Part shown: in pieces, positions 4,035-49,459 of the stretch
Layout: every line of letters begins with the position of its first letter
How positions within the stretch are numbered: the stretch's first letter is position 1
Assembly (NCBI GenBank): GCA_017545535.1
Contig: JAFWMS010000003.1
Span: 41,991 to 105,990 of the forward strand
Length of the DNA stretch: 64,000 nt
Source: Clostridia bacterium
GTDB lineage: Bacteria > Bacillota > Clostridia > Christensenellales > CAG-138
Reading direction: 5' to 3'
The notes under the pieces: generated by a model
Databases searched by the model: none
What the model was told of the DNA's origin: nothing
What the model saw: the letters and a program-made list of their open reading frames with translations, nothing else
Position numbers and translations under genes: made by a program

Positions 4035-5299
4035 TGTTTACCACATTCGTCAACGCATTCAAGATCAAGGACCTGAGAAAGAAGATCCTGTACACCCTTC
4101 TTCTCATCGTGGTCTATCGTCTTGGCTGCGCCATCCCCATCCCTGGCGTCGACGCGGCGGCCTGGGCCAAGCAGATCGAAGGTCTGGCTCTGTTTGATTT
4201 CATGAGCCTGCTCTCCGGTTCCGCCCTGTCTCAGTTCACCATCTTCGCCATGGGTGTCTCGCCCTACATCACCGGTTCCATCGTGATGCAGCTGCTGGCC
4301 ATCGCCATCCCCTCCCTGGAGAAGCTGAGCAAGGAGGAGGACGGCCGCCAGAAGATCGAGCAGATCACCCGGTATGTGGGCGTTGCCCTGGCTCTCGTGC
4401 AGAGCTTTGGCATCATCGTCACCTACGGTCGCTCCATCGTCACCGGTGAGCCCCTCTGGTGGTCCTACCTGACCATCTGCGTCTGCTCCGCAGCGGGCAC
4501 GGCGTTCCTCATGTGGCTGGGTGAGCGGATCACGGAGAAGGGCATCGGCAACGGTATCTCCATGCTGATCTTCGCCTCCATCGTGAGCCGGGTCCCCGAT
4601 TGGATCATCGAGCGGTTCCGTCTGTTGTTCACCGGCGTTCAGGTGTGGCAGTTCTTCGTGGCGCTCATCGTCATCATCGCCCTGATCACCTTCGTGGTGC
4701 TCATCGAGAAGGCCGAGCGGAAGATCCCCATCATGTACGCTAAACGGGTCGTGGGCCGCAAGCTTTATGGCGGGCAGAACACCTACCTGCCCATGAAGGC
4801 CAACGCCAACGGCGTGCTGCCTCTGATCTTCGCCATGACCCTCATGCAGGTGCCCACCATGATCCTCCAGTTCTTCCCCGGCTCCGCCGTGTCCAACTGG
4901 TGGGAGAAGTACATGAGCTCCAGCGCCGCTGTGCCGGTACCCTACTATCTCATCTACTTCCTGCTGATCATCGCCTTCGGTTACTTCTACACCTCCATCA
5001 CCTTCAATCCGGTGGAGATGAGCAAGAACCTGCAGCAGAACGGCGGCTTCATCCCCGGCATCCGGGCGGGCCGTCCCACGGGCGAATACCTGGGCAAGAT
5101 CAGCAACCGCCTGACCCTGTTCGGCTCCCTGTTCCTGGCCATCATCGCCATCATCCCTACCATCGTGCTGAACTCGCTGCATGTGACCAGCATGTTCGGC
5201 GCCACCAGCGTGCTGATCATGGTGAGCGTGGCTCTGGAGACCACCGAGCAGTTGGAGGCCCAGATGCTCATGCGGCATTACAAGGGCTTCCTCAACTGA
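4034..5299 (+). CDS. secY: Preprotein translocase subunit SecY
   Basis: 421-aa polytopic protein. Its ATG overlaps the rplO stop (TAATG). Canonical position. Confidence 0.96.
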
Positions 5300-8932: not shown

Positions 8933-9874
8933 ATGTTGGATTTTGAAAAGCCCAAACTCGAATGCGTTGAGATGTCTGAGAACTATGGCAAGTTCGTGGT
9001 GGAACCCTTAGAGCGTGGCTTCGGCATGACCTTGGGCAACTCCATGCGTCGGGTGCTTCTTTCCAGCCTTCCCGGCGTGGCCGCCACCTCCATCCGCATC
9101 GACGGTGTGCTCCATGAGTTTTCCACCATCGAGGGCGTCAAGGAGGATGTGACCGAGATCATCCTGAACCTGAAGGGTCTCATCTGCAAGCTCCATAGCC
9201 AGGGCCCCAAGAAGGTCATTATCGACGCGGCGGGCGAGTGTGAAGTCACCGCCGGCGATATCCTGCCCGATGCCGACGTGGAGATCATCAATCCTGAACT
9301 CCATCTCGCCACGCTGGACGAGAACGGCAAGCTCCACATGGAGATCATGCTGGATCATGGCCGCGGCTACGTGGTGGCCGACAGGAACAAGCGGCCCGAC
9401 ATGCCCATCGGCGAGATCGCTGTGGATTCCATCTACACGCCCATCACCAAGGTGAACTTCACCGTGGACGACACCCGTGTGGGCCAGATCACCGACTATG
9501 ACAAGCTCACCTTGGAGATCTGGACCAACGGCAGCATCAAGCCCGACGAAGCGGCCAGCTACGCCGCCAAGATCCTCACGGAGCATCTGATGCTCTTCAT
9601 CAACCTGACCGACAGGATCCAGGGCGTGGAGATCATGGTGGAGAAGGAGGAGAGCAAGAAGGAAAAGATCCTGGAGATGAACATCGAGGATCTGGACCTT
9701 TCCGTCCGCTCCTACAACTGCCTCAAGCGGGCCGGCATCAACACCGTGGAGGAGCTGGTGCAGCGGGATGAAGACGAGATGATGAAGGTCCGGAACCTGG
9801 GCCGGAAGTCTCTCGAAGAAGTGCAGCAAAAACTGGCGCAGTTGGGCTTGACCCTGCGCAGCAACGAAGATTAA
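8933..9874 (+). CDS. rpoA: DNA-directed RNA polymerase subunit alpha
   Basis: 313 aa. The N-terminal domain is followed by the CTD motif [22 protein letters not shown]. Confidence 0.96.
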
Positions 9875-12573: not shown

Positions 12574-13899
12574 ATGAAAACAATAAGCGTATCGAGGCAG
12601 TATGCCCCATTGCGCGTTTGCGCTGACATATGCTTTTATTTTTACACGATCTCCCTTTTTTCGTTTTCTGTGCTGTATACGGCTTCAGATGAACAGGGCG
12701 TCTATGGGGTCGTTACCAACCTTATCGCGCCATGGTCTCTTCAGTTGGCGGTCCTGGTGGCTGCGTGTCTTGTCCTCGGGTTTGTTATCATACGTATAGA
12801 CAACATGGCGCTGCGCTTTCTTTTGTCGCTGTTGCCGGGGCTTAGTTTTCTGATGAGCCCTTTTCAGTTGATCCTGCTGATTCATGCCGCTGCGTGGATA
12901 TACTACGTCATAATACTGACGATCGGAAACTTCGAAATTCATCTCGACGTATACCGGCGGCGGATCCGCGTGATGCTTCTCGCCGCGTTGCTGCTGACGC
13001 TTTGTTTGATCATCTTTCATTTCGGCACCGACGACTGGTATAGCAAGAAGTTGTTTGGCGGAGAGATATACGGCCTGCTCTTTTTCGTGTTGGCCGTGCT
13101 TTCGCTGCGCGGCATGCGGTTGAGTCTTGGCGCCTCGAAGAAGATGAGGATACTGGACGGCACATATGTGGTTGTCTTGCCGGTGCTGCTCGTCGCCGCT
13201 TTCTTCCTGCTGCGCTTTACAGTACCCGCGATCACTTTTCTCTTCTCGCTTTTATCGCGCTTTTTGATCTGGGTGAGTCAGACCTTTTTTCCAGGAAGGA
13301 GAATGCCGGATATTTTCCATCCGCTGGAGGAGGAAGATGTCAATAAAGTGTTGAAAGAGGAAGGATCCCTTTCTTTGCCGTATGGAAATGACCAAAGGCC
13401 CGATGCAGAGTTGGTAGGCAGTGGAGCCCCTGTTCATTTTCATGTATCTATTCCCGTTGTTCTGTGCATCATGATCGCTTTTCTGGCTGGAGCTTTGATC
13501 CTTGTCGCCATCCGGCAGGCCAGCGGCAGACAGAAAAACCAGAAAAAACCCAGGCTCGTGGGCGAACGAATGGAAAGGGTGCCATTTGAAGGGCTGCTGC
13601 GCCATAGATCCGGCGATTCTGGGCTTCCCGTCCATGTCAGGCAGATCCGCAGGATATATCGCACCTATCTGGAGCATATCCGCTCCCTGCGCATGCGAAT
13701 ATCCATTTCCGACACCTCCAAGGATGTGCTGGATCATTCGTCGGCATATTTGGACTTGCCGGAGAACGAACGGCTGCGGGATCTGTACATCGCCGCCCGA
13801 TACGGCGACCCGAAAAAGGTCACCTCCGACCAGGCGGCTGAGGCCAAACGCTGCTTGTCCGCGATCGAATCGGCAAAGCCCTCTGCCATGGATGAGTAG
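12574..13899 (+). CDS. Polytopic membrane protein with DUF4129-like C-terminus
   Basis: About 8 TM segments, then RIYRTYLEHI...LRDLYIAARYGDPKKVTSDQAAEAKRCL, which resembles DUF4129 tails of MoxR/DUF58 operons. ATG 12574 has AGGAGG upstream, so it is preferred over 12532. Confidence 0.75.
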   Translation: MKTISVSRQYAPLRVCADICFYFYTISLFSFSVLYTASDEQGVYGVVTNLIAPWSLQLAVLVAACLVLGFVIIRIDNMALRFLLSLLPGLSFLMSPFQLILLIHAAAWIYYVIILTIGNFEIHLDVYRRRIRVMLLAALLLTLCLIIFHFGTDDWYSKKLFGGEIYGLLFFVLAVLSLRGMRLSLGASKKMRILDGTYVVVLPVLLVAAFFLLRFTVPAITFLFSLLSRFLIWVSQTFFPGRRMPDIFHPLEEEDVNKVLKEEGSLSLPYGNDQRPDAELVGSGAPVHFHVSIPVVLCIMIAFLAGALILVAIRQASGRQKNQKKPRLVGERMERVPFEGLLRHRSGDSGLPVHVRQIRRIYRTYLEHIRSLRMRISISDTSKDVLDHSSAYLDLPENERLRDLYIAARYGDPKKVTSDQAAEAKRCLSAIESAKPSAMDE

Positions 13900-37228: not shown

Positions 37229-37450
37229 ATGGCGGAGGGTGGAAAAAAACAGGTGCCTCTGCGCCTGTCGTCCAGCCTCTATGAGGCCATCGCCGCTTGG
37301 GCGGAGGAGGACTTCCGTTCCGTGAACGGACAGATCGAGTATCTGCTCACGGCCTGCGTCCGCCAGCATAAGAAGAACGGCGGGGTAGTGCCGGAGGGGA
37401 TCTCCTCATCTGTCGTCCTGAGCGAGCATAGCGAGTCGAAGGATCTTTGA
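37229..37450 (+). CDS. Arc/RHH-type small DNA-binding protein
   Basis: 73 aa. KKQVPLRLSSSLYEAIAAWAEEDFRSVNGQIEYLL fits a ribbon-helix-helix. It is tightly coupled to the SPFH gene. Confidence 0.7.
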   Translation: MAEGGKKQVPLRLSSSLYEAIAAWAEEDFRSVNGQIEYLLTACVRQHKKNGGVVPEGISSSVVLSEHSESKDL

Positions 37451-37457
37451 ACGCAAA

Positions 37458-38007
37458 AGCTCTGCTGGTGATGGGAGTCTGCGCGCAATCTTCGGGGAAC
37501 TTGCCCTATGGGCGGCGTTCCCGCTCGCTTGCGCTCCCCAGGGGCGGACAAAAGCCCCACCGGGGCTTTTGCATCCCGCCCTCCGACTCCCTTCCGTAAA
37601 ACTTAAAAAGAAAACCACCCTCCACGGGTGGTTTTCTTTTTGGAGCTGGTGATGGGAGTCTGCGCGCAAGCTGCGGGCTGCTGGCCTATTCGGCTGGCGC
37701 AGCCTCTGGCTTGCGCTCCCCAGGGGCGGGAAAAAGCCCCACCGGGGCTTTTTCTGTCCGCCCTCCGACTCCCTTCCACAAAAACGTAAAAAGGAAACCA
37801 CCCTCCACGGGTGGTTTTCTTTTTGGAGCTGGTGATGGGAGTCTACGCGCAAGCTGCGGGCTGCTGGCCTATTCGGCTGGCGCAGCCTCTGGCTTGCGCT
37901 CCCCATGCTGCGGAAAACTGTCCACCGGACAGTTTTCTACCGCGGCTCCGACTCCCTTCCACTGAAAATCCATAAAAATAGCCACCCACAAGGGGTGGCT
38001 GTTTTTA
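37458..38007 (-). repeat. Tandem array of three ~183-bp structured modules, each ending in the tRNA-Thr 3' 20-mer
   Basis: TGGAGCTGGTGATGGGAGTC starts at 37641, 37824 and 38008 (the last is the tRNA itself). A 16-nt version lies at 37464-37479. The periods are 180, 183 and 184 bp, and the hairpin architecture is conserved. Confidence 0.9.
37972..38000 (-). terminator. tRNA-Thr terminator (bidirectional hairpin)
   Basis: Minus-sense AGCCACCC-CTTGT-GGGTGGCT followed by ATTTTTAT. Confidence 0.75.
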
Positions 38008-38084
38008 TGGAGCTGGTGATGGGAGTCGGACCCATGAACCTCGTCATTACCAATGACGCGCTCTACCAACTGAGCTACACCAGC
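38008..38084 (-). tRNA. tRNA-Thr (anticodon GGT), atypical T-loop
   Basis: Hand-folded as GCTGGTG/CACCAGC acceptor, GCTC/GAGC D stem, CGTCA-TTGGTAA-TGACG anticodon arm and ATGGG-TCCGACT-CCCAT T arm, with encoded CCA. It is 77 nt long, with C at position 55 and a 6-nt variable region. Confidence 0.75.
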
Positions 38085-43134: not shown

Positions 43135-43163
43135 TTGACAGAAGCCGACATCTCATATATAAT
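43135..43163 (+). promoter_or_regulatory. Consensus promoter of the tRNA array
   Basis: TTGACA (43135-40), 17-nt spacer, TATAAT (43158-63). Confidence 0.85.
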
Positions 43164-43188: not shown

Positions 43189-43264
43189 GGGAGCATAGCT
43201 CAGCTGGGAGAGCACTTGCCTTACAAGCAAGGGGTCACAGGTTCGAGCCCTGTTGTTCCCACCA
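43189..43264 (+). tRNA. tRNA-Val (TAC)
   Basis: Hand-folded cloverleaf. GGGAGCA/TGTTCCC acceptor, CTTGC-CTTACAA-GCAAG anticodon arm, ACAGG-TTCGAGC-CCTGT T arm, CCA encoded. Confidence 0.92.
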
Positions 43265-43271
43265 GATATTC

Positions 43272-43348
43272 GGCCCGGTAGTACAGTTGGTTAGTACGCC
43301 AGCCTGTCACGCTGGAGGTCAGGGGTTCGAGCCCCCTCCGGGTCGCCA
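43272..43348 (+). tRNA. tRNA-Asp (GTC)
   Basis: GGCCCGG/CCGGGTC acceptor, CCAGC-CTGTCAC-GCTGG anticodon arm, AGGGG-TTCGAGC-CCCCT T arm, CCA encoded. Confidence 0.92.
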
Positions 43349-43352
43349 ATGT

Positions 43353-43428
43353 GCCTCGGTAGCTCAGTTGGTAGAGCAAGGGACTGAAAATCCCTGTGTC
43401 GGTGGTTCAAGTCCACTCTGAGGCACCA
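43353..43428 (+). tRNA. tRNA-Phe (GAA)
   Basis: GCCTCGG/CTGAGGC acceptor, AGGGA-CTGAAAA-TCCCT anticodon arm, GGTGG-TTCAAGT-CCACT T arm, CCA encoded. Confidence 0.92.
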
Positions 43429-43436
43429 TTTTTTTT

Positions 43437-43512
43437 GCGGGAATAGCTCATTTGGTAGAGCGCAGCCTTGCCAAGGCTGAGGTGGCGGGTTCGAGCCCCG
43501 TTTCCCGCTCCA
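43437..43512 (+). tRNA. tRNA-Gly (GCC)
   Basis: GCGGGAA/TTCCCGC acceptor, CAGCC-TTGCCAA-GGCTG anticodon arm, GCGGG-TTCGAGC-CCCGT T arm, CCA encoded. Confidence 0.92.
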
Positions 43513-43515
43513 TAT

Positions 43516-43589
43516 GGCGCCATAGCCAAGCGGTAAGGCACGGGTCTGCAAAACCCTCATCCCCGGTTCGATTCCGGGTGGCGCCTCCA
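43516..43589 (+). tRNA. tRNA-Cys (GCA)
   Basis: GGCGCCA/TGGCGCC acceptor, CGGGT-CTGCAAA-ACCCT anticodon arm, CCCGG-TTCGATT-CCGGG T arm, CCA encoded. 74 nt. Confidence 0.92.
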
Positions 43590-43590
43590 A

Positions 43591-43627
43591 AAACAAACAG
43601 CATCCGAAAGGATGCTGTTTGTTTTTG
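43591..43627 (+). terminator. tRNA-array terminator
   Basis: CAAACAGCATCC-GAAA-GGATGCTGTTTG followed by TTTTT. Confidence 0.85.
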
Positions 43628-43807
43628 GAGATGCCGCTCCCACATCAACCGATACGCCAGTATCCGGTTCGTTCCGGGCAGCGAAGCTGCGGCTCGGCAG
43701 TGAATGAAGCCCCAGTGGGGCTTCAGAGCCGGGCCGTGACCGAGCCCGCAGGCGAGAGCGCCTCCAAAAACAAAAACCACCCCGAAGCGGGTGGTTTTGA
43801 TTTTTTA
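43626..43807 (+). repeat. tRNA-Cys-linked structured module plus its own terminator
   Basis: It starts TGGAGATGCCGCTCC and ends GAGAGCGCCTCCA. The 17-mer GCGCCTCCAAAAACAAA is repeated at 43581-97 and 43758-74. It contains a GAAGCCCC-AGT-GGGGCTTC hairpin and an ACCACCC...GGGTGGT terminator like those of the Thr-linked modules. Confidence 0.8.
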
Positions 43808-43860
43808 GAGATGTTACTCCCCCATCGACCGGCGCGTCAGCGCCGATTTGTTCCAGACAG
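43806..43860 (+). repeat. Truncated second copy of the Cys-linked module
   Basis: TTAGAGATGTTACTCCCCCATCGACCGGCGCGTCAGCGCCGATTTGTTCC aligns with the module start TGGAGATGCCGCTCCCACATCAACCGATACGCCAGTATCCGGTTCGTTCC. The hairpin sequence is swapped but still pairs. Confidence 0.65.
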
Positions 43861-43917
43861 TGTCCGTTACAACGATCCTCTTTTTCCGTCGACAAAACGT
43901 TTCATTTTCTCAAGGGA

Positions 43918-44154
43918 TCAGGGGCTGACGGCGTGCTCCATTTTGCAGGCGTCCTGCTCAGCGGTGGCGGGATCGATGCACATGGCGATCAGGCAGGATT
44001 TCAGGACATGGTGCGTGTTGGCAGCCTGTTCTGCCGCTTCCCGTTCAGTTTTCGTCAGGCAGATCCGTTTGTCCGCATCCATGGTCAAATAGCTGCCCTC
44101 GCGCAGGTGCTTCATGGCTTTGCTGACGCTGGGCTTGGTCACATGGAGCAGTAG
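43918..44154 (-). pseudogene. 5'-truncated DtxR/MntR-family metalloregulator
   Basis: VTKPSVSKAMKHLREGSYLTMDADKRICLTKTEREAAEQ...DACKMEHAVSP matches the central and C-terminal part of small DtxR-like repressors. The N-terminal HTH (~35 aa) is missing and an in-frame stop lies at about 44155. Confidence 0.7.
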
Positions 44155-46396: not shown

Positions 46397-46402
46397 GTAA
46401 CA

Positions 46403-46600
46403 AAATTGAATAGTCAGTCGGTGCCCTTGCCGCCCGGAGGGAGGCAAGGGGTAAAAGGGAAACAGGTGAAAGGCCTGTGCGATCTCGTCACTGTATGCGG
46501 AAGAGTCCGTCGGGCGCCAAAAGGCGCGGCCACTGGGAAACCGGGAAGGCGATGGGCGAAGCGCCGCGAGCCAGGAAACCTGCCGTCTGTCGGTACGGGA
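46403..46600 (+). ncRNA. Cobalamin (B12) riboswitch
   Basis: Conserved blocks GGTGCC (46420), AAAAGGGAA (46453), AGGTGAAA (46464) and GCCACTGGGAAACCGGGAAGGC (46529). B12 box AGCCAGGAAACCTGCC (46569-84). It lies upstream of corrinoid uptake and biosynthesis genes. Confidence 0.9.
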
Positions 46601-46783
46601 AAAGATGTTTTCCAGATCACGAGGGATTGATCGTGTACCATGCTCCCGCTTTGGGGCGCTCTTTACACGCAGTCTCTTTGCCAGCAGGTGAAGAGCTTTT
46701 TTCGTGCCGTGGGTTTCGCTGATGTACCTATTATATACATCGGGGGACGCTCGGGCGTCCCAATAAAAAATGAGGAGGAACCT

Positions 46784-49459
46784 ATGAAAAGAAAGATCGC
46801 ACTGTTTCTGGCTCTCTTCATGCTGCTCTCCGTCAGCATGATCGCCCTGCCCGCCTTCGCCGAGGAGGGTGAGGAGCCCTCTGAGGCCGACAAGGAAGCC
46901 GCCGCCCAGGTGGCCGCCCTCATCGACGCCATCTACGTCCAGGAGCGGACCGAGACCACCGACGCGGACTGCGCCGCCGCCAAGGCCGCCTGGGACGCTC
47001 TCACCGACGCCCAGAAGGAGTTGGTGGAAGGCGAGGAAGCCGACCCCGATTACTTCGGCCGTGACACCGGCGACGCCTCCAAGGACGATCCCCGGAACGC
47101 CGACGAGATCGGCGAAAATGAGCTCCTGGTGGTGAGCTTCGGCACCTCCTTCAACGACAGCCGGGCCGAGGATATCGGCGGCATCGAGAAGGCTCTCGAA
47201 GCGGCGTTCCCTGAGTGGGCCGTCCGCCGGGCCTTCACCGCCCAGATCATCATCAACCACGTCCAGGCCAGGGATGGAGAGTTCATCGACAACATGGACC
47301 AGGCCCTGGAGCGGGCCGTGAAGAACGGTGTCAAGAACCTGATCATCCAGCCCACCCACCTCATGCACGGCGCCGAATACGACGAGCTGGTGGAAGCGGT
47401 CGCCAAGTATGCCGACAAGTTCGCCACCGTCGCCGTGGCCGAGCCCCTGCTGGGCAAGGTGGGCGCTGACGCCGCCGCCGTGAACAACGACAAGCTGACT
47501 GTGGCTGAAGCCGTGGTGAACGAAGCCGTGAAGGAGGCCGGGTTCTCCAGCCTTCATGCCGCCGAGAAGGACGGTACCGCCTTCGTGTTCATGGGCCACG
47601 GCACCGCCCACGCCGCCAAGGTCACCTATTCCCAGATGCAGACCATGATGAAGGAACTGGGCTATAAGAACGTGTTCATCGGCACCGTGGAAGGCGAGCC
47701 TGAGGAAACTGCCTGTGAGGAAGTCATCAAGGCCGTCAGCGAAGCGGGCTACACCAAGGTCATCCTGCGGCCGTTGATGGTCGTCGCCGGCGACCATGCC
47801 AACAACGATATGGCCGATCCTGAGGACGAGGAGTCCTGGTTCAGCATGTTCACCGCTTCCGGCCTCTTCGCCGACATCCAGTGTCAGATCGCCGGCCTTG
47901 GCCGGATCGAAGCCGTCCAGAAGCTCTATGTGAACCATACTCAGGCCGCCATCTATGCCATGGCTCCCGCCAATGAGACCGACGCGGAGGCTGCCGCTCG
48001 GGTGGCCGCCCTCATCGACGCCATCTACGTCCAGGAGCGGACCGAGGCCACCGACGCTCAGTGCGCCGCCGCCAAGGCCGCCTGGGACGCCCTGACCGAC
48101 GAACAGAAGGAGTTGGTGGAGGGCGAGGAAGCCGACCCCGATTACTTCGGCCGCGACACCGGCGACGCCTCCAAGGACGATCCTAGGAACAAGAACGGCA
48201 TCGGCGAAAACGAGCTGTTGGTGGTGAGCTTCGGCACCTCCTTCAACGACAGCCGGGCCGAGGATATCGGCGGCATCGAGAAGGCCCTGGTGGAAGCGTT
48301 CCCCGGCTGGGCCGTCCGCCGCGCTTTCACCGCTCAGATCATCATCAACCATGTCCAGGCTCGAGAGGGTGAGTTCATCGACAATATGGACCAGGCCCTG
48401 GAGCGCGCTGTAGCGAACGGCGTGAAGAACCTGCTCGTCCAGCCCACCCACCTCATGCACGGCGCCGAATACGACGAGTTGGTGGAAGCCCTCAACAAGT
48501 ACGCCGACAAGATGAATATCGTGGTGGCCGAGCCTCTGCTAGGCGAGGTCGGCGCGGATGCCACCGTGATCAACGCCGACAAGGAAGCCGTGGCCAAGGC
48601 CGTGGTGGACGCTGCCGTGAAGGCCGCCGGCGCAGAGTCCCTGGAAGCGCTTGAAAAGGACGGCGTGGCCCTGGTGTTCATGGGCCACGGCACCGCTCAC
48701 GTGGCGAAGGTCACCTATTCCCAGATGCAGACCCAGATGAAGGAACTGGGCTATAAGAACGTGTTCATCGGCACCGTGGAGGGCGAGCCCGAGGAGACTG
48801 CCTGCGAGGAAGTCATCAAGGCCGTCAACGAAGCGGGCTACACCAAGGTCATCCTGCGGCCGTTGATGGTCGTCGCCGGCGACCATGCCAACAACGACAT
48901 GGCCGATCCCGAGGACGAGGAGTCCTGGCTCAGCATGTTCACCGCCTCCGGCCTTTTCGCCGACGTCCAGTGCCAGATCGCTGGCCTTGGCCGGATTCCC
49001 GAGGTCCAGGCGCTCTATGTGGCCCACAGCCAGGCCGCCATCGATGAAAAGGGCCTGAAGGTGGAGGCAGCTGCCGCCCCCGCCGCTGTCCTGGCGGACG
49101 GTGTCTACAAAGTCACCTTTAAAACTGACAGCGGCATGTTCCATGTGAACGAGGCCCTTAAGAACCAGGGCACCCTCACTGTGGAGAACGGTAAGATGAC
49201 CATCCATATCAGCCTGGCCTCCAAAAGCATCGTGAACCTGTTCCCCGGTCTCGCCGAGGACGCCAAGAAGGAGGGCGCGGAGCTGCTGCAGCCCACCACC
49301 GACACGGTGAAGTATGACGACGGCACCACCGAGGAAGTCTACGGCTTCGACGTGCCCGTTCCTGTCATCGGCGAGGAGTTCGATCTGGCTCTGGTGGGCA
49401 AGAAGGGAACCTGGTACGACCACAAGGTCATTGTCACCGATCCCGTGCCTGAGGCGTAA
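46784..49459 (+). CDS. Secreted protein: two tandem CbiK-like (class II chelatase fold) modules plus a C-terminal NEAT-like domain
   Basis: Starts at MKRKIALFLALFMLLSVSMIALPAFA (signal peptide; GAGGAGG RBS). Each module has QPTHLMHGAEYDEL and FMGHGTAH. The tail is DGVYKVTFKTDSGMFHVNE...TLTVENGKMTIHISL. Confidence 0.88.
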   Translation: MKRKIALFLALFMLLSVSMIALPAFAEEGEEPSEADKEAAAQVAALIDAIYVQERTETTDADCAAAKAAWDALTDAQKELVEGEEADPDYFGRDTGDASKDDPRNADEIGENELLVVSFGTSFNDSRAEDIGGIEKALEAAFPEWAVRRAFTAQIIINHVQARDGEFIDNMDQALERAVKNGVKNLIIQPTHLMHGAEYDELVEAVAKYADKFATVAVAEPLLGKVGADAAAVNNDKLTVAEAVVNEAVKEAGFSSLHAAEKDGTAFVFMGHGTAHAAKVTYSQMQTMMKELGYKNVFIGTVEGEPEETACEEVIKAVSEAGYTKVILRPLMVVAGDHANNDMADPEDEESWFSMFTASGLFADIQCQIAGLGRIEAVQKLYVNHTQAAIYAMAPANETDAEAAARVAALIDAIYVQERTEATDAQCAAAKAAWDALTDEQKELVEGEEADPDYFGRDTGDASKDDPRNKNGIGENELLVVSFGTSFNDSRAEDIGGIEKALVEAFPGWAVRRAFTAQIIINHVQAREGEFIDNMDQALERAVANGVKNLLVQPTHLMHGAEYDELVEALNKYADKMNIVVAEPLLGEVGADATVINADKEAVAKAVVDAAVKAAGAESLEALEKDGVALVFMGHGTAHVAKVTYSQMQTQMKELGYKNVFIGTVEGEPEETACEEVIKAVNEAGYTKVILRPLMVVAGDHANNDMADPEDEESWLSMFTASGLFADVQCQIAGLGRIPEVQALYVAHSQAAIDEKGLKVEAAAAPAAVLADGVYKVTFKTDSGMFHVNEALKNQGTLTVENGKMTIHISLASKSIVNLFPGLAEDAKKEGAELLQPTTDTVKYDDGTTEEVYGFDVPVPVIGEEFDLALVGKKGTWYDHKVIVTDPVPEA
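46896..49040 (+). repeat. In-frame tandem duplication (period 1092 bp) inside the CDS
   Basis: GTGGCCGCCCTCATCGACGCCATCTACGTCCAGGAGCGGACCGAG occurs at 46910 and 48002. High identity continues for about 1.05 kb. Confidence 0.9.

Follow-up and report, generated by a model that had tools for sequence, protein, structure and literature searches.

Why should the DNA behind a tRNA gene carry a second copy of that gene's own 3' end? The question is raised by a 141-nt module downstream of the tRNA-Cys gene in a 64,000-nucleotide stretch from a Clostridia bacterium of the CAG-138 lineage (contig JAFWMS010000003.1), the whole of which is termed the window below. A preliminary description of the window had proposed that this module and a set of modules linked to tRNA-Thr represent a discrete element or RNA, as opposed to simple slippage at one site. 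Our analysis indicates that the module holds a conserved core of ~85 nt, which appears from sequence comparisons to be a widespread, uncatalogued small non-coding hairpin-folded repeat of gut and rumen Clostridia and their phages. We tentatively read it as a non-autonomous element that colonises the 3' ends of tRNA genes.

A conserved folded core behind tRNA-Cys

The tRNA-Cys gene closes an operon of the order Val-Asp-Phe-Gly-Cys (43189-43589, plus strand), in front of which lies a perfect consensus promoter (43135-43163). Directly after the operon's terminator the module is present at 43626-43766 as originally described, beginning with TGGAGATGCCGCTCC and ending with GAGAGCGCCTCCA, the last 9 nt of tRNA-Cys (the terminal 9 nt of the module, GCGCCTCCA, are the same as the 3' terminus of the tRNA). 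Likewise, the reported 17-mer GCGCCTCCAAAAACAAA was recovered twice, at 43581 and 43758, where chance alone would give ~0.02 matches; a further copy at 43618-43634 is inverted and differs at 2 positions, and the repeat period of the locus is 177 nt. A covariance model of the core (R1), run across the whole 64-kb window with filters off and yielding rough E-values, supports the following predicted structure:

43674-43761, plus strand: conserved core, ~85 nt, with four hairpins or helices (R1, 87.3 bits, E-value 9e-17)
43679-43689, plus strand: mini-hairpin CAGC-GAA-GCTG (covariance structure)
43689-43697 paired with 43729-43737, plus strand: helix P2 (covariance structure)
inside the long P2-P3 hairpin, plus strand: internal loop CAGUGAA / GAG (7/3; covariance structure)
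43705-43725, plus strand: helix P3 (covariance structure)
43736-43745, plus strand: invariant unpaired GUGACCGAGC (alignment)
43746-43752, plus strand: mini-hairpin CC-GCA-GG, then CGAGA (covariance structure)

Orthologous tRNA-Cys loci were retrieved via the adjacent CoaX gene, whose identity served as the yardstick of relatedness, and the unpaired stretches invariant among these orthologues supplied a search pattern (GTGAATGA..CARAGCC..TGACCGAGC), which was run against metagenome stretches from human gut and rumen and against viral contigs; the family figures given here concern the matches listed. The pattern recovered at least 120 metagenome stretches and 7 viral contigs, with 138 distinct copies of the core, up to 3 of them inside 14 kb, and the likeness between copies is limited to ~100 nt. 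The presence of the core at many loci and in many genomes bears out the proposal that the module is a discrete recurring entity and not the outcome of slippage at one site. Across 114 distinct copies the family-wide layout consists of a GC-GAA-GC mini-hairpin, the P2-P3 hairpin, GUGACCGAGC and a C-GNA-G mini-hairpin. Covariation analysis of these copies, with 500 shuffles and slid pairings as controls, found 93.5% of cells paired and 16 of the 22 pairs changed on both sides, a level reached by none of the shuffles, with the shifted pairings leaving 25-46% of cells paired.

Searches of the window and seven related loci with Rfam 15, at gathering and E-value thresholds, matched only tRNAs and recovered no family for any core variant; the classes without a match include tmRNA (transfer-messenger RNA), Y RNA/YrlA, omega/HEARO RNAs, self-cleaving ribozymes, 6S and SRP, and the best non-tRNA scores on the module were generic hairpin matches to microRNA models, far under the thresholds. 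BLAST searches of cultured phages and plasmids with the family consensus gave no match, and a full-text search of the literature found neither the core family nor modules wrapped in the 3' ends of neighbouring tRNAs described. Both small structured intergenic repeats and attachment-site duplications of tRNA ends are already known, and it is the core family, along with the way it surrounds itself with tRNA-end copies, that appears to be undescribed. GCGAAGC or GCGNAGC and C(GNA)G triloops are classic extraordinarily stable DNA mini-hairpins (PMC13037366). The presence of three triloops in one core might lean towards a fold of single-stranded DNA. A kink-turn (K-turn) was considered for the internal loop and rejected, there being one A too many.

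Copies at other tRNA and tmRNA genes

A same-strand tRNA gene lies no more than 700 nt upstream of 17 core copies, the tRNAs concerned being Cys, Ser-GGA (three loci), Ala-TGC, Ala-CGC, Ala-GGC, Thr-GGT and Gln. At loci L110, L161 and L207 the core follows an apparent tmRNA 3' end, recognised by eye, and in L149 (206-734) a module with a 40-nt duplication sits in the 16S-23S spacer between tRNA-Ala and tRNA-Ile. At no fewer than 12 independent loci the core is found downstream of the tRNA or tmRNA, on the tRNA strand, and is bracketed by inverted and direct copies of its 3' end. The order of parts does not vary: the tRNA and its terminator come first, then the tRNA 3' end in reverse complement, reaching through the T loop (...GGATTCGAAC), then the core, a sense copy of the tRNA 3' end and, usually, the terminator again. 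The left flank of the tRNA-linked cores is the reverse complement of the neighbour's 3' end including the T loop (ATTCGAAC), the core ends in ...GCGAGA, and the sense copy that follows spans T54-C56 to CCA. The expectation that copies carry the 3' end of the cognate tRNA holds for Cys, Ser-GGA, Ala-TGC, Ala-CGC and Thr-GGT, with 8-21 identical nt, and in weaker form (6 nt) for Ala-GGC in L197; it fails for tRNA-Gln, where L174 and L191 show no tRNA-end copy. For the tmRNA-adjacent copies the cognate 3' end was judged by eye.

All cores at tRNA 3' ends are in tRNA sense, which excludes inversion of the core between the inverted arms for these copies. The sole exception among the tRNA-linked loci is L145, where the core, next to the 5' end of tRNA-Leu, runs antisense and lies in a duplicate of the gene's 5' part. 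In L106 (7661-7951) the core lies within the T loop of tandem tRNA-Arg(CCG) copies, upstream of an intact copy. Direct repeats of 20-40 nt or more, of the kind found at tRNA attachment sites, are present at L096, L110, L138, L149 and L179, and the 17-mer of the tRNA-Cys locus is also of this kind; no integrase was found between the tRNA-end repeats, the interval consisting of terminator, mirror arm and core only. As the long direct repeats at tRNA loci pass through the terminator and beyond its T-tract, they point to tandem duplications at the DNA level and not to copies of mature tRNA. An origin from mature tRNA by RNA-primed copying is disfavoured by the duplications that exceed CCA, terminator and T-tract in L138, L179 and L149, and by the sense (S) copies without CCA in L106.

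Anatomy of the tRNA-Cys locus

Around the core, the following features make up the locus:

43516-43589, plus strand: tRNA-Cys(GCA), final gene of the operon, whose 3' end (S1) is copied in the module (ARAGORN; Rfam RF00005, 63 bits)
43581-43597, plus strand: first copy of the 17-mer GCGCCTCCAAAAACAAA, tRNA acceptor 3' strand plus CCA plus A-tract (repeat search)
43590-43625, unstranded: bidirectional terminator 1, with A-tract, hairpin CAGCATCC-GAAA-GGATGCTG and T-tract (inverted repeat; comparison with L009, L010, L012, L021)
43626-43651, plus strand: mirror arm A, TGGAGATGCC..., the inverted tRNA-Cys 3' end, then conserved CTCCCACATCaACCG (inverted 17-mer, 2 mismatches)
43648-43668, plus strand: tip hairpin ACCGATAC-GCCA-GTATCCGGT (stem bases replaced with pairing kept in orthologues and in the second unit)
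43664-43678, plus strand: sense T-arm-like segment CCGGTTCGTTCCGGG, from the tRNA-Cys T arm CCGGTTCGATTCCGGG (direct repeat)
43758-43774, plus strand: second copy of the 17-mer (S2), tRNA-Cys acceptor 3' strand plus CCA plus A-tract (repeat search)
43767-43806, unstranded: bidirectional terminator 2, AAAACCACCCC-GAAG-CGGGTGGTTTT, of the stem type common to the Thr array (hairpin search)
43803-43860, plus strand: partial third unit, with mirror arm, tip hairpin CGGCGC-GTCA-GCGCCG and degenerate T-arm-like segment, without core; common to L009 (alignment)

The TGGAG at the start of the module, formerly taken for the terminus of an element, instead forms the distal arm of a palindrome that has terminator 1 at its centre (26-nt arms, 43580-43605 and 43610-43635, 92% complementary) and takes in the tRNA 3' end; it is a mirror copy (A) of this end (S). 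A link between the CTCCCACATCaACCG part of the mirror arm and the antisense tRNA-Cys T arm is suggestive only, the shuffle test for such an origin being not significant beyond TGGAG and ATCG(A)ACCGG. The degenerate T-arm-like segment noted earlier is genuine in that CCGGTTCGTTCCGGG resembles the tRNA-Cys T arm, and the second module of L228 reads CCGGTTCGATTACGGG, 1 mismatch from the tRNA. The order in the Cys module is mirror arm, tip hairpin, sense T arm, core and acceptor 3' strand with CCA, and the core is located where the T stem meets the acceptor strand. The truncated further copy with a swapped hairpin was also confirmed: 78 of 108 columns align to the first unit, with ACCGATAC-GCCA-GTATCCGGT exchanged for CGGCGC-GTCA-GCGCCG and the pairing intact.

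The stem of terminator 1 (43598-43617; CAGCATCC/GGATGCTG) is found only in the window strain, all relatives having a CCACCC-type stem with the same flanking A- and T-tracts; comparison of the sequences suggests that this hairpin was exchanged wholesale in the window strain. No promoter was found between terminator 1, which is strong, and the module. In a test for tRNAs or pseudo-tRNAs ARAGORN and Rfam detected just 6 true tRNAs in the window, and an E-value scan of 43500-43920 gave no tRNA-clan match on the module, whose tRNA-derived parts are the T-arm-like 15-mer and the 9-nt acceptor end only. A coding reading was rejected, the 157-aa open reading frame (ORF) at 43619-44092 being antisense to a repressor-gene fragment and its frame being broken by hairpin indels in orthologues. 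A truncated DtxR-type repressor gene lies at 43918-44142 on the minus strand, comprising the Fe_dep_repr_C part only (74 aa). The sequences diverge at ~44142, with L021 running on into the apparent remainder of a DtxR-type gene; this pattern suggests a rearrangement just downstream of the Cys array. Further along, a cobalamin riboswitch (46402-46601, plus strand, 97 bits) lies upstream of a long ORF (46640-49459), the counterpart gene of which in L001 has CbiK/CbiX domains.

Orthologous loci and changes in module number

The Cys module is retained in L009, L010, L015 and L028, at CoaX identities down to 79%, and in L128, where two stems show compensatory changes and the unpaired stretches do not vary; it is truncated in L012 and L021, and mirror arm A decays in the Cys lineage. 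Contigs of the window's own strain are identical. Module number is polymorphic among close relatives. There are two Cys modules in L228 and L230 versus one in L229, the neighbouring protein being identical in all three; the two modules of L228 and L230 differ through compensatory stem changes, and the deletion in L229 joins S copies. Thr modules number 1-3 among relatives with 92-98% CoaX identity. By locus, there are three in the window, one in L009, two in L010, one each in L012, L013 and L015, and at least two in L014.

In a related species (L224 4031-4495; L231-L236) a truncated tyrosine integrase and a truncated DnaB-like gene stand directly after tRNA-Cys, and the Cys module is missing. 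They are an old island remnant, and its position right behind the gene indicates that the tRNA-Cys 3' end is a genuine integration site. In L231 and L234 the far end of this remnant has no core. The more distant L231, the sole locus of the L231-L236 set checked for Thr modules, carries two of them. The L028 module is followed by AT-rich DNA of foreign appearance, the beginning of which is similar to the island end in L224.

The Thr-linked modules of the window

The other array of the window lies at tRNA-Thr:

37517-37963, minus strand: three Thr-linked modules, diverged relatives of the core as judged by R1, in tRNA-Thr sense (R1 matches 37882-37963, 37699-37780 and 37517-37598)
38008-38084, minus strand: tRNA-Thr(GGT), whose 3' 16-20 nt, GACTCCCATCACCAGC(TCCA), close each Thr module (ARAGORN, repeat search)

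After the Cys module, R1 ranks precisely the three Thr modules of the window, each of them matched on the minus strand, with scores of 28.6 bits (E ~2e-4), 21.4 bits (E ~7e-3) and 19.0 bits (E ~0.02), the rest of the window reaching at most 12.3 bits. They are without the UGAAUGA/UCAGAG loop and retain the P2-P3 geometry, the CCGGUGG apex and GAGC, and each starts with a partial reverse complement of the tRNA-Thr 3' end and ends with GACTCCCATCACCAGC(TCCA). One model thus matches the Cys and Thr modules above background, and by this model the Thr modules appear to be weak but specific relatives of the Cys core. The two loci are related in kind, and probably by descent too.

Several of the arguments first offered for this kinship were not confirmed. 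A shared plus orientation at both loci is contradicted by R1, which puts the Thr modules on the minus strand, the sense of tRNA-Thr, in keeping with the tRNA sense of tRNA-linked cores. Pairwise similarity between Cys and Thr modules is within the shuffle range in both orientations, the supposedly same-strand elements AAGCTGCGG and AAGCCCC..GGGGCTT are short or palindromic and readable on either strand, and the TGGAG ... TCCA ends reduce to the tRNA 3' end and its mirror copy. The shared terminator type does stand: CCACCC-N3-8-GGGTGG occurs 4 times in 64 kb, in all four cases at the Thr and Cys module loci, with 0.11 expected.

In tRNA-Thr(GGT) the T loop is TCCGACT, position 55 being a C in place of the near-universal U, and this sequence is the same in all close relatives with Thr modules. 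The modules are lacking in species further removed whose T loop is the standard TTCGAAT. A second small repeat family, of the GTCATCCTGAGCG...GAAGGATCTCTGAACGG type (GTCATCC...GAAGGATCTCTGAACGG), occupies 37400-37462 of the window, where it supplies the last codons (VVLSEHSESKDL and stop) of a ribbon-helix-helix (RHH) ORF at 37229-37450. It is also found 3' of the Thr arrays in L012, L009 and L231, and in relatives it is inserted after ...CATCACCAGC, with perfect 16-23-nt duplications of the tRNA-Thr end.

Dispersed and phage-borne copies

The larger part of the family, 121 of the 138 distinct copies, is dispersed, with more than 100 sites unrelated to tRNAs. These copies show no orientation bias relative to flanking genes and no terminator-side bias (37 versus 33), and clustering of the 477 ORFs adjoining core copies revealed no recurrent neighbouring protein. 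Several core subfamilies exist, each with different but complementary closing stems; GGTAG stands in front of the core in most non-tRNA copies of the alignment, and many dispersed copies are nested within another palindromic repeat family. One tandem unit in L113 occurs both with and without the core, the latter resembling an empty site. Direct repeats, 12-34 nt in length, flank some non-tRNA copies, among them cases located between dnaK and dnaJ and cases in which a terminator hairpin is duplicated. One subfamily of ~22 copies possesses a conserved upstream block and its own terminator, in the manner of a small RNA gene. Units of ~290 nt from a subfamily, comprising the core and their own terminator-like hairpins, are found in L168 and L181, where they separate dnaK from dnaJ, and in L182; the alternative insertion site lies just 3' of a terminator hairpin, ahead of its T-tract, and direct repeats of 24-31 nt flank the units. 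Three intergenic core copies, distributed over both strands, lie in the IMG/VR contig L210, a genuine phage region with portal, terminase and capsid genes (pattern matches):

4440-4485: first core copy
9078-9123: second core copy
12711-12756: third core copy

Comparison with known elements

Like miniature inverted-repeat transposable elements (MITEs) and repeats of the REP-REPIN or BIME type (Correia, ERIC, RUP, Bacillus cereus bcr1), the modules are short (100-150 nt), non-coding, hairpin-forming, multi-copy and intergenic, are often near terminators and in either gene orientation, and have no gene of their own; as with MITEs, the core family has many dispersed non-coding copies in unrelated contexts. 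In contrast to these repeats, the unpaired bases of the core are strongly conserved while its stems vary. Its closing stem is no fixed terminal inverted repeat, differing between subfamilies and being copied from the neighbouring tRNA at tRNA loci, its flanking duplications are variable (12-68 nt across the family) and not of the fixed short length of MITE target duplications, and no cognate transposase of the RAYT or insertion sequence (IS) kind was identified. A search for signs of IS200/IS605 elements (PATE) or of TnpB omega-RNA found no recurrent ORF among the 477 adjoining ones, no definable consistent target motif and no IS605-related Rfam match.

The tRNA-linked copies are equally reminiscent of integrative elements that target tRNA and tmRNA genes and of their integrase-less derivatives, which accrete at tRNA attachment sites in the manner of cis-mobilizable elements (CIME). 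Shared features are direct repeats of the 3' end that begin in the T loop or acceptor, a replacement 3' end with terminator, tandem arrays at one tRNA and the integrase remnant at the same tRNA-Cys in a related species. Unlike such elements, the unit is ~180-190 nt long and gene-free; it includes the attachment segment in inverted form, as well as a folded core that also occurs at many non-tRNA sites. A further parallel is offered by folded single-stranded sites such as the integron attC and the attP hairpin of CTX phage, which are likewise ~60-140 nt long, with conserved structure, covarying stems and few conserved unpaired bases, two inverted target-like copies that pair into a duplex site, and tandem arrays. 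In distinction to attC, the alignment shows no GTTRRRY/RYYYAAC boxes at the hairpin base, and the T-loop GTT/AAC of tRNA-linked copies is near the apex; no link to IntI or Xer was found either. Insertion exactly in the T loop (L106 and the tmRNA-linked copies) recalls the group I introns in the T loops of tmRNA and tRNA genes. Published intron-form tmRNA genes are at least 545 bp in total length (PMC11915505). The tRNA-like end plus ~85-nt core is far smaller than such genes, the core has no group I architecture and no Rfam match, and most copies stand beside an intact tRNA and not inside one.

Possible origin and function

Our preferred reading, to which we would assign a probability of roughly 0.45, is that the core is a non-autonomous, hairpin-folded mobile or duplicative repeat element colonising tRNA 3' ends, where its arrays vary via recombination between tRNA ends. 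The 141-nt module would then be one unit of a 'tRNA-trailer' array made up of S copy, bidirectional terminator, mirror copy A and ~85-nt core. The element may settle in or beside existing hairpins, be they tRNA T arms, terminators or other palindromic repeats, and at tRNA and tmRNA genes would do so in tRNA sense, the tRNA 3' end serving as local template for its closing stem. This stem could result from fold-back or template switching as the terminator and core hairpins are copied, presumably with the involvement of an enzyme; it might also be an attachment site in folded single-stranded form. With two direct tRNA-end copies in place, recombination between them would expand or contract the array. 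Several observations weigh against this reading. None of the core copies is accompanied by a transposase, integrase or reverse transcriptase, and no clean pair of empty and filled states of a tRNA site was obtained. The maintenance of the Cys module at its orthologous site at 79% CoaX identity, with compensatory stem changes, looks like purifying selection on a host function and not like a decaying insertion. Across 1 Mb of related genomes tRNA-Cys is the sole site of the core, so that the core is not a high-copy repeat in this clade. Counts of G-U versus A-C pairs leave the folded strand unidentified once one doubtful pair is dropped, and there is some circularity in the invariance of the pattern bases, as the metagenome copies were picked by a pattern that fixes them.

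The conservation at tRNA-Cys could instead reflect a functional structured non-coding RNA, arising by read-through or processing from highly transcribed tRNA, tmRNA or rRNA operons and ending at its own terminator; we regard this as the main rival, possible though less likely. In its tRNA-linked form this could be a tRNA-trailer RNA, with an acceptor/T-stem minihelix and CCA end, serving as a decoy, sponge or processing substrate. Covarying P2 and P3 helices and invariant loops at the orthologous site, the perfect promoter driving the operon, the sRNA-gene-like subfamily and the position of the cores downstream of tRNA 3' ends, on the tRNA strand and with a terminator after each (bar the antisense L145 beside a tRNA 5' end), all speak for such an RNA. 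It is difficult to reconcile with the missing promoter behind the strong terminator 1, with non-tRNA copies that lack gene-orientation bias, reach several per 15 kb and lie on both strands of phage structural operons, with C(GNA)G triloop mini-hairpins, which are more typical of DNA than of RNA, with the decay of mirror arm A, by which the minihelix is not maintained, and with the lack of a matching Rfam family. That the modules are passive scars, without function or mobility of their own, left where integrase-bearing islands or phages, each supplying a replacement for the tRNA end and its terminator, integrated repeatedly at a tRNA 3' end before their interiors were lost and palindromes extended, seems unlikely. 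The direct repeats do begin at the classic attachment-site positions in T loop or acceptor, and the integrase and DnaB-like remnant, the foreign-looking DNA 3' of the L028 module and the second repeat family with its duplications of the tRNA-Thr end agree with this scenario. Against it, a dozen or more independent tRNA and tmRNA loci share one ~85-nt core at one and the same position, where nothing further separates it from the terminator; over 100 other core sites have no connection with tRNAs; and random deletion remnants would not give covarying stems with invariant loops. More speculative, and in our estimate quite improbable, is a bacterial 'snap-back' copying element of the SINE-like (short interspersed element) or 'genomic-tag' type with tRNA and tmRNA 3' ends as both primer and landing pad: the 3' end of a nascent strand or terminated tRNA precursor would fold back on the terminator, T-tract pairing with A-tract, and be extended through the tRNA 3' end to the T loop, whereupon a polymerase or reverse transcriptase would jump to a core template and back to the T loop, the conserved core being its recognition site. 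Finally, a generic likeness of GC-rich terminator hairpins combined with local slippage at one site might have been invoked from the shuffle-level similarity of Cys and Thr modules and the short or palindromic motifs first used to join them. The distinct copies elsewhere, the covariation beyond all shuffles and shifted pairings, and an R1 score of 87 bits over a background of at most 12 exclude it for practical purposes, and the 17-mer and the terminator type are likewise far above chance expectation.

If the reading as a hairpin-folded repeat element is true, an abundant and uncatalogued small element would be present in gut and rumen Clostridia and their phages, specifically decorating the 3' ends of tRNA and tmRNA genes with copies of those ends in both mirror and direct form. 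Repeated breaks in assembly and false ORF predictions at the tRNA loci of metagenome-assembled genomes would then have an explanation, and islands and phages would gain extra copies of their attachment sites. The core is short, highly conserved and an easy experimental target, and would offer a tractable system for how hairpin elements copy their flanks or, should the non-coding RNA explanation be right, a new class of tRNA-trailer RNA.

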